Sequence record: EF517026.1
Length of the DNA: 564 nucleotides
Reading direction: 5' to 3' (one strand)
Source: a phage
Shown: positions 1 to 564 of the stretch, piece by piece
Position numbering within the stretch: position 1 is the first letter of the stretch
How the letters are laid out: every line of letters starts with the position of its first letter
Made by a program: the position numbers and the translations under genes
The notes under the pieces: generated by a model
Told to the model about the DNA's origin: nothing
Databases searched by the model: none
What the model saw: the letters and a program-made list of their open reading frames with translations, nothing else

Positions 1-564
1 CTGGGAAAAAGAAAACCCGCCAGTACAAGCAACTGGGTGTATAGCTTGCTTAGAGAAAGATGACCGTTATCCACACACTTGTAACAAAGGAGCTAACGAT
101 ATGACCGAACGTGAACAAGAGATGATCATTAAGTTGATAGACAATAATGAAGATCGCCCAGATGATTTGAATGGCTGCGGTATTCTCTGCTCCAATGTCC
201 CTTGCCACCTCTGTCCCGCAAATAACGATCAAAAGATAACCTTAGGTGAAATCCGAGCGATGGACCCACGTAAACCACATCTGAATAAACCTGAGGTAAC
301 TCCTACAGATGATCAGCCTTCCGCTGAGACAATCGAAGGTGTCACTAAGCCTTTCCACTACATGCTGTTTGACGACATTGAGGCTATCGAAGTGATTGCT
401 CGTTCAATGACCGTTGAGCAGTTCAAGGGATACTGCTTCGGTAACATCTTAAAGTACAGACTACGTGCTGGTAAGAAATCAGAGTTAGCGTACTTAGAGA
501 AAGACCTAGCGAAAGCAGATTTCTATAAAGAACTCTTTGAGAAACATAAGGATAAATGTTATGC
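1..564 (+). CDS. 1.7: Nucleotide (dTMP/dGMP) kinase, phage T7 gene 1.7-like; partial CDS truncated at both window edges (first full codon 2-4, last full codon 560-562)
   Basis: Seen in sequence: frame 2 has no stop codon from 2 to 564 (187 complete codons plus a partial gc- codon). In-window translation: WEKENPPVQATGCIACLEKDDRYPHTCNKGAND MTEREQEMIIKLIDNNEDRPDDLNGCGILCSNVPCHLCPANNDQKITLGEIRAMDPRKPHLNKPEVTPTDDQPSAETIEGVTKPFHYMLFDDIEAIEVIARSMTVEQFKGYCFGNILKYRLRAGKKSELAYLEKDLAKADFYKELFEKHKDKCY(A). The two other + frames stop early (TAG 42-44, TGA 61-63). From memory: T7 gene 1.7 is about 196 codons and its product occurs as a roughly 22 kDa and a roughly 18 kDa form from two in-frame starts. The window fits this, with about 8 codons missing upstream and the final codon plus stop just downstream. 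The product assignment is recollection and was not verified by any search. Confidence 0.8.
87..92 (+). promoter_or_regulatory. Shine-Dalgarno site (AAGGAG) for internal in-frame initiation at ATG 101-103, giving a shorter isoform of the same protein
   Basis: Seen in sequence: AAGGAG at 87-92, an 8-nt spacer (93-100), then ATG at 101-103 in the same frame as the long ORF. The 155-residue product from ATG 101 (assuming termination right after the window) has a calculated mass near 17.8 kDa by my hand computation, close to the roughly 18 kDa short form I recall for T7 gp1.7. Confidence 0.6.
548..552 (+). promoter_or_regulatory. Putative Shine-Dalgarno site (AAGGA) for a downstream gene starting at ATG 561-563
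   Basis: Seen in sequence: AAGGA at 548-552, an 8-nt spacer (553-560), then ATG at 561-563 in a different frame from the main CDS. That frame is open back to the TAG at 507-509, and 561 is its first ATG. Confidence 0.4.
561..564 (+). CDS. Start of a downstream gene overlapping the 3' end of the gene 1.7-like CDS (T7 gene 1.8-like?); only the start codon plus 1 nt is in the window
   Basis: ATG at 561-563 with an SD-like AAGGA 8 nt upstream. From memory, T7 has a small gene (1.8) whose start overlaps the last few codons of gene 1.7. Nothing of this ORF beyond the start codon is visible, so the call rests on the start signal alone. Confidence 0.3.

Follow-up and report, generated by a model that had tools for sequence, protein, structure and literature searches.

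We call window the whole stretch of 564 nucleotides analysed here (record EF517026.1). It aligns with positions 8190-8753 of phage T7 at 98.8% nucleotide identity and is an internal part of T7 gene 1.7: frame 2 is open from end to end and, by identity and by the T7 annotation, the coding sequence of the nucleotide kinase gp1.7 occupies positions 1..564, codons 9-195 of 196 in T7, and runs off both ends. This and all features below lie on the plus strand. The identity with gene 1.7, assumed in the original prediction, is also borne out by gene order: gene 1.6 precedes the coding sequence, and gene 1.8, whose ATG at 561-563 (T7 8750) overlaps the final codons of gene 1.7, follows it. Residue 1 of the window protein (W1) is encoded by nucleotides 2-4, and T7 residue numbers are obtained by adding 8. 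Overlapping genes or other frames do not account for the cysteine codons discussed below, since these frames hold short mechanical open reading frames only.

The window encodes the founding member of the DUF3310/gp1.7 family (PF11753; PHROG 2585). The Pfam match, over residues 114-176, has E = 3.9e-22 and scores 78.5 bits where the cut-off is 24, and the match to PHROG 2585, labeled "nucleotide kinase", reaches 2e-85 over residues 12-187; there is also a weak match, with E about 1e-3, to phrog_14146, of unknown function. The DUF3310 core, at 341..529, is the sole part that all members of the family share, and presumably acts as the kinase domain: nearly all of the 1,598 relatives found at E <= 0.001 align to residues ~100-187 alone. 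The Pfam model is confined to residues 114-176, and the cysteine-rich N-terminal half of gp1.7 lies outside every family model.

The window differs from reference T7 at seven positions (79, 153, 214, 313, 354, 478 and 520), all of them C>T or G>A transitions, a spectrum that looks like chemical mutagenesis or deamination. Among the phage records of our collection, none carries the seven transitions across the full window. Two of the seven change the protein: G51D, in a variable loop of what we call module B, and S118F, where the kinase core begins, next to the invariant residues P117, H119 and Y120 and in a column where 117 of 120 homologues have a serine. To judge from this conservation, S118F could affect kinase function. 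The core has its own conserved residues, outside the Cys/His span considered below: among 150 diverse representatives of the family, H119 (353-358) is kept in 147, C145 (434-436) in 145 and C186 (557-559) in 142; H182 shows no such conservation. If the core were a simple helical hairpin, C145 and C186 would not be neighbors.

The original prediction had drawn attention to the cysteines and histidines of frame 2 between positions 38 and 214, and all of its codons are as it gave them: C13 (38-40), C16 (47-49), H25 (74-76) and C27 (80-82), then, after a gap of 31 residues, C59 (176-178), C63 (188-190), C68 (203-205), H69 (206-208) and C71 (212-214). The count of seven Cys and two His in 59 residues is exact, and the span contains no other His. 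When all windows of 59 residues in the 56 annotated T7 proteins, whose average Cys content is 1.2%, are compared, this stretch has the highest Cys density of the proteome, with 7 Cys; the next ones are in gp2.8, with 6, in the RNA polymerase, with 5, and in gp4A, whose known zinc motif yields 4. The gp2.8 window, at residues about 18-76, has 9 residues when Cys and His are counted together. For a single window, the gp1.7 count has a binomial probability of 7.8e-6, which rises to about 0.1 when all 12,476 window positions are conservatively corrected for. Composition by itself is only borderline evidence; it is the conservation of the Cys columns that establishes the stretch as real.

Two modules upstream of the kinase core

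Conservation was evaluated with hidden Markov models of the two halves of the N-terminal region, run over 278 proteins; these include 150 representatives of clusters at 50% identity, taken from an exhaustive search. Searches that rely on word indexes had recovered few proteins with the N-terminal half, and a single one with the profile of module B. The alignment of homologues that the original prediction called for supports its cysteines: each is kept in 124-130 of 132 copies in the second half of the stretch, and each ligand position in 34-41 of 43 in the first.

The second half belongs to a segment at 101..277 that we call module B, and that is best described as an autonomous small domain with an N-terminal helix, a loop region with four cysteines, and a helix containing the motif TLGEIR. 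Its candidate ligands, at 176..217 with the proline that follows, are C59, C63, C68 and C71, or C67, C71, C76 and C79 in T7 numbering, followed by P72 (215-217), in the pattern C-x3-C-x4-C-x2-C-P; in relatives, the first spacing ranges from 3 to 10 residues. There are 132 distinct copies of the module among the 139 found: C59 is present in 124, C63 in 130, C68 and C71 in 129 each, P72 in 127 and N49 in 130, which puts the retention of the cysteines at about 94-98%. In the 120 closest homologues, each of the four is kept in 117-118. An alignment of 62 columns, whose members have 23-79% identity to the window, places all four cysteines among its ten most conserved columns (hypergeometric P = 3.8e-4): N49, C63, C68, P72 and R85 are invariant, and C59, C71, T80, L81 and G82 are conserved at 90% or more. 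The motif T-L-G-x2-R downstream of the cysteines is conserved too, and the consensus reads L-(V/I)-x2-N ... C-x(3-10)-C-x2-(V/I)-x-C-x2-C-P ... TLG-x-(V/I)-R. The ligands are all cysteines, with no interchange between His and Cys in the copies of module B.

One member of the proposed cluster is lost in this comparison. H69 (206..208), the second of the two histidines counted originally, is replaced freely, with S in 38 of the 132 distinct copies, G in 33, H in 20, E in 8, and others in the rest; among the 120 closest homologues the column holds S, G or H, and its neighbor L70 is hypervariable too. Since its column is hypervariable, H69 is not part of the motif, and it is probably not a ligand.

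Modeled alone with AF2, module B obtains a mean pLDDT of 89.3 and a pTM of 0.76, with a helix of 13 residues, a Cys loop that turns briefly at C59 and again at C68-C71, and a last short helix; the prediction of an autonomous fold is thus a confident one. In the model of the full-length protein (pLDDT 62.7, pTM 0.36), module B has values of 66-85, the core forms three helices, and residues 93-124 fall below 50, within a flexible linker rich in Pro, Thr and Asp that joins module B to the kinase core (278..373). The linker is disordered in this model, and the packing of the domains has no confidence, given the pTM of 0.36. Scans of modules A and B against Pfam and NCBIfam gave no match; a search of the PDB returned noise only for the gp1.7 sequence and nothing for the profile of module B, and no fold analogue of module B was found there.

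The first half of the stretch is module A, TGCIACLEKDDRYPHTCNK, at 32..88. Its candidate ligands at 38-82, C13, C16, H25 and C27 (C21, C24, H33 and C35 in T7), form the pattern C-x2-C-x8-H-x-C; the upstream half that holds them reads GCIACLEKDDRYPHTC, and they are kept in 34-41 of 43 distinct copies. Divergent copies have H-x3/4-C-x9-12-C-x-C: His and Cys are swapped at two ligand positions, with DDRYPCTC or DDRYPCDC where others have DDRYPHTC, and C-x2-C replaced by H-x3/4-C (P0167, P0193), so that CCHC becomes HCCC; the spacing is preserved and the number of ligands remains four. Such an interchange with a retained ligand count is behavior typical of metal ligands. In the full-length AF2 model, module A has a pLDDT of 35-48. 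About 7 of the 120 best matches share another beginning, MGLLDGD/A..WEKD/E, of which MGLLDGDAWEKDHDHSHACNKGATIMTEREQE is the one example in full; this variant extension has H-x-H-x-H-x-C in place of module A, with four potential ligands in 7 residues.

The original prediction treated all these residues as one cluster bisected by an internal start. This picture is not supported by comparison across the family, in which A and B occur separately, in reverse order, in duplicate, or replaced by other modules. In P0128 and P0129, module A adjoins the core and B is missing; many genes, including those of K1F and of Klebsiella phages, have B only, and keep all four of its cysteines; B precedes A in P0131 and P0135. 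There are tandem copies of A in one lineage (P0119, L016), and of B in P0139. In FE44, module B is replaced by H-x3-C-x8-C-x-C, and in P0126 and P0127 by H-x2-C-x6-C-x3-C-x-C; four proteins (P0030, P0040, P0096, P0120) have an extra module C-x-C-x10-H-x3-C inserted in the linker. Each alternative module of the family has exactly four Cys/His. A comparison with 50,697 phage genomes gave 410 records with B and 213 with A, each time at the gene 1.7 locus.

Because the arrangements found across the family are mosaic in this way, A and B are optional and self-sufficient accessories of a constant DUF3310 core. The family also bears on the suggestion that bound metal would have a role other than catalysis: of the 150 diverse DUF3310 representatives, 133 have neither A nor B, 44 have at least four cysteines upstream of the core, and 40 have no cysteine there. 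With 40 such relatives, neither module can be needed for catalysis across the family, and the suggestion is supported to that extent.

The tandem copies of A in L016 (IMGVR_UViG_2706795180_000001) have a junction that reads ...PQDKEGVL-MGLLDG..., with AAAGAGGGTGTTCTA-ATG at the nucleotide level. It looks like a recombination of the "IEGV" sequence with which the core begins (GAAGGTGT) with the ribosome binding site of the gene start (GGAGGTGTTCT), and motifs of the form GGTGT at module borders, similar to Shine-Dalgarno sequences, may drive the shuffling of modules.

The internal start and the two products

The boundary between the two modules coincides with a translation start. An in-frame ATG at 101..103 (codon 42 in T7), which is a Met in 116 of 120 homologues, is preceded at a distance of 8 nucleotides by the Shine-Dalgarno sequence AAAGGAG (86..92), itself contained in the codons N-K-G-A at the A/B junction. 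As originally proposed, the ATG at 101 is in frame and falls between the halves of the stretch, and four candidate ligands separate the long product from the short one: all those of module A are upstream of Met34, in window numbering, and the complete set is unique to the long form. The full-length product has 196 residues and 22.2 kDa; the short product has 155 residues and a calculated mass of 17.7 kDa. Two forms of gp1.7, of about 22 and 18 kDa, were reportedly described by Tran and colleagues in 2010. Their studies of 2010 and 2012 are said to find both forms equal in kinase activity, the C-terminal half sufficient for dideoxythymidine sensitivity, and the enzyme to be a large oligomer. 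As the start lies on the border of A and B, the short form has the whole of a Cys4 site, not half of one.

The arrangement AAAGGAG-N8-ATG, with codons N-K-G-A/V-N-x-M, is present at the A/B border of all loci examined that have both modules. AAAGGAG is invariant in ten of them (L001, L002, L004 and L006-L012), and the weakened form AATGGAG occurs in L013 alone, where module A has also lost a cysteine. Genes with A and no B have neither the junction nor an internal start. In genes of the K1F type, which have B only, the internal ATG is the sole start: in K1F, the ATG of module B directly follows the ribosome binding site at the end of gene 1.6, AAGGAGGTGTTCT, which in T7 precedes module A.

Two Logan contigs illustrate how a phage can dispense with the long form. 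In L022 (327-403) and L023 (ERR779990_431 and ERR477264_14171), an expansion of a CA repeat adds 2 nucleotides to module A, CCACACACACCTGT against CCACACACCTGT in T7. The frameshifted module becomes a mini-ORF of 25 codons, MSGCIACLEKDDRYPHTPVTKELKV*, whose TGA overlaps the ATG of module B (ATGA). Given this frameshift, the short form is all that this natural phage, which turned up in two independent samples, can produce. Escherichia phage ZH4 (OM355495.1; L021 707-781) is annotated from the internal ATG in spite of an in-frame module A, MSGCIACLEKDGRYPHTCNKGVNN, with a strong ribosome binding site: the internal start can attract gene callers, and make B-only proteins look commoner in databases than they are. 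The 50 homologues out of 120 that begin at the internal Met are consequently an upper bound for B-only genes, since some are gene-calling choices, as in ZH4, or frameshift variants; about 35, with N-termini of the K1F type, are truly B-only.

We conclude from these comparisons that a "B + core" gene was the ancestral form, and that the internal start was probably its original one. It would have persisted as such in K1F and in Klebsiella T7-like phages, and module A, together with a second ribosome binding site, would be a cassette placed in frame between the ribosome binding site at the end of gene 1.6 and this original start. The long isoform is the short one plus one module, the two differing by one whole accessory module.

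Probable metal binding and competing readings

Modules A and B each have four Cys/His in two closely spaced pairs, and in both the ligand positions are kept while neighboring positions vary. We consider it the probable explanation that the stretch consists of two independent, non-catalytic mini-domains, each with four ligands and most likely one structural Zn2+. Module A would offer a Cys3His site, in the product of 196 residues only, and module B a Cys4 site, in both products, tethered to the DUF3310 core by a linker of about 30 disordered residues. The likely role of the metal would be to stabilize small domains that serve in oligomerization or in the binding of partners. Coordinates, conservation, the independence of the modules, the place and conservation of the internal start and the confident fold prediction for module B are results of the analysis; the binding of a metal, the choice of zinc, and the structural, oligomerization or partner-binding role are inferred. 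The main risk to the zinc reading is that the metal content of gp1.7 may already have been measured by Tran and colleagues in 2012, one of the co-authors reportedly being a trace-metal analyst.

The strongest competitor, which we hold to be unlikely though by no means negligible, is that the cysteines bind no metal, and are kept for reversible disulfides, for thiol redox control, possibly with the host thioredoxin, or for the packing of a small domain. In its favor, module B has no recognizable homology to zinc fingers, zinc being deduced from sequence, and any earlier ICP-MS measurements might turn out to show no bound metal. In addition, as the original prediction stated, gp1.7 is described as needing no divalent cation for catalysis; for its dTMP/dGMP kinase activity, this independence is quoted second-hand in PMC7693777. 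Against this reading, the His/Cys swaps at ligand positions of module A are not expected of disulfides, and every alternative module of the family also has exactly four Cys/His. Moreover, when a cytoplasmic protein has four near-invariant cysteines in a span of 13-20 residues, they seldom turn out to be anything but a metal site.

Somewhat less likely again is an extension of the metal hypothesis, in which module B is an undescribed metal-binding fold, acting as an autonomous domain for interaction or oligomerization, and the family may grow by capturing four-ligand cassettes in frame, each with its own ribosome binding site, nested isoforms being a by-product. Module B might then drive the formation of the large oligomer, or be the surface that is sensed by Avs5.

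It is improbable that module B holds an iron-sulfur cluster, which would make gp1.7 sensitive to redox conditions or to oxygen. The segment C63-x4-C68-x2-C71, with its invariant Pro, does resemble part of the plant-type [2Fe-2S] pattern C-x4-C-x2-C...C, and its "CP" ending recalls ferredoxin motifs. However, of the canonical motifs, C-x2-C-x2-C-x3-C-P and C-x4-C-x2-C-x~29-C, only the sub-pattern C-x4-C-x2-C-P is present; the spacing after the first Cys of the module varies from 3 to 10 residues; and module B has neither a fold similarity to ferredoxins or other Fe-S proteins nor a match to a Pfam Fe-S model. Purified gp1.7 has been extensively studied and, to our knowledge, no color has been reported, which also counts against a cluster of this kind.

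Returning to the two separate mini-domains, they leave very little room for the composite site first proposed, cross-braced or binuclear, which would be incomplete in the short isoform. In favor of such a site, a single polypeptide has all 7 Cys and 2 His in a span of 59 residues; against it, the widespread B-only genes keep their four cysteines, A-only genes exist, some genes have the modules in reverse order or one of them in duplicate, A and B each have their own four ligands, and module B is predicted with confidence to fold without A. Finally, a fluctuation of composition devoid of function, a reading that could appeal to the corrected probability of about 0.1 over the windows of the T7 proteome, is refuted for all practical purposes by Cys columns that are among the most conserved of the domain down to 23% identity.

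Known systems and immune context

The closest parallel is in the same genome. Gene 4 of T7 uses the same device for its products 4A and 4B, an in-frame internal Shine-Dalgarno sequence and ATG, at codon 64 where gene 1.7 has codon 42; its short form is without the N-terminal C17-x2-C20-x15-C36-x2-C39, just as the short form of gp1.7 is without module A. The zinc motif of gp4 is needed for template recognition by the primase, hence 4A and 4B differ in activity. In contrast with gene 4, the short form of gp1.7 retains a second complete module, with four cysteines, the two forms are reportedly equal in kinase activity, and module A is of the Cys3His type with a much shorter spacing.

Non-catalytic sites with four ligands are also known on other nucleotide or nucleoside kinases, namely the Cys4 lid of Gram-positive adenylate kinases and the zinc "lasso" of type II thymidine kinases. 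These are embedded in P-loop folds, whereas gp1.7 has a helical DUF3310 core without a P-loop, and modules tethered at its N-terminal side; they are functional analogies, and the sequence and fold searches with gp1.7 gave no sign of homology to them. As for the zinc knuckle or ribbon suggested originally (C-x2-C...C/H-x(1-2)-C), the modules share with it paired ligands, ligand-like conservation, His/Cys interchange and small size, and to this extent the suggestion holds; as a classification it is not supported, for no similarity of A or B to a known zinc-finger family or fold was found, and module B is mostly helix and loops, with no analogue in the PDB. Two other DUF3310 proteins (P0261, P0207) have N-terminal modules C-x2-C...C-x2-C with sub-threshold matches to zinc ribbons of Pfam.

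Gene 1.7, the isoforms it encodes and the independence of the catalysis from metal were already known, and the device is familiar from gene 4; the modular anatomy, and the un-annotated domain of module B, are apparently undescribed in the resources that we searched. The finding is thus of a common kind, with some modest novelty in its details. It concerns the half of gp1.7 that lies outside the kinase core, in an unusual metal-independent nucleotide kinase without a solved structure. It indicates where constructs for structural studies can cleanly be cut (T7 residues 1-41, 42-100 and about 120-196), defines precisely the natural difference between the isoforms, and corrects the notion of a broken metal site in the short one.

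The same protein has recently entered the field of antiphage immunity: in 2025, gp1.7 of T7 was described as an activator of the SIR2-STAND defence protein EfAvs5, inducing its filamentation and NADase activity (PMC11897194). The main text of that paper contains no data on truncations or Cys mutants of gp1.7. Separable modules allow direct tests of which part of the protein drives oligomerization or immune recognition.
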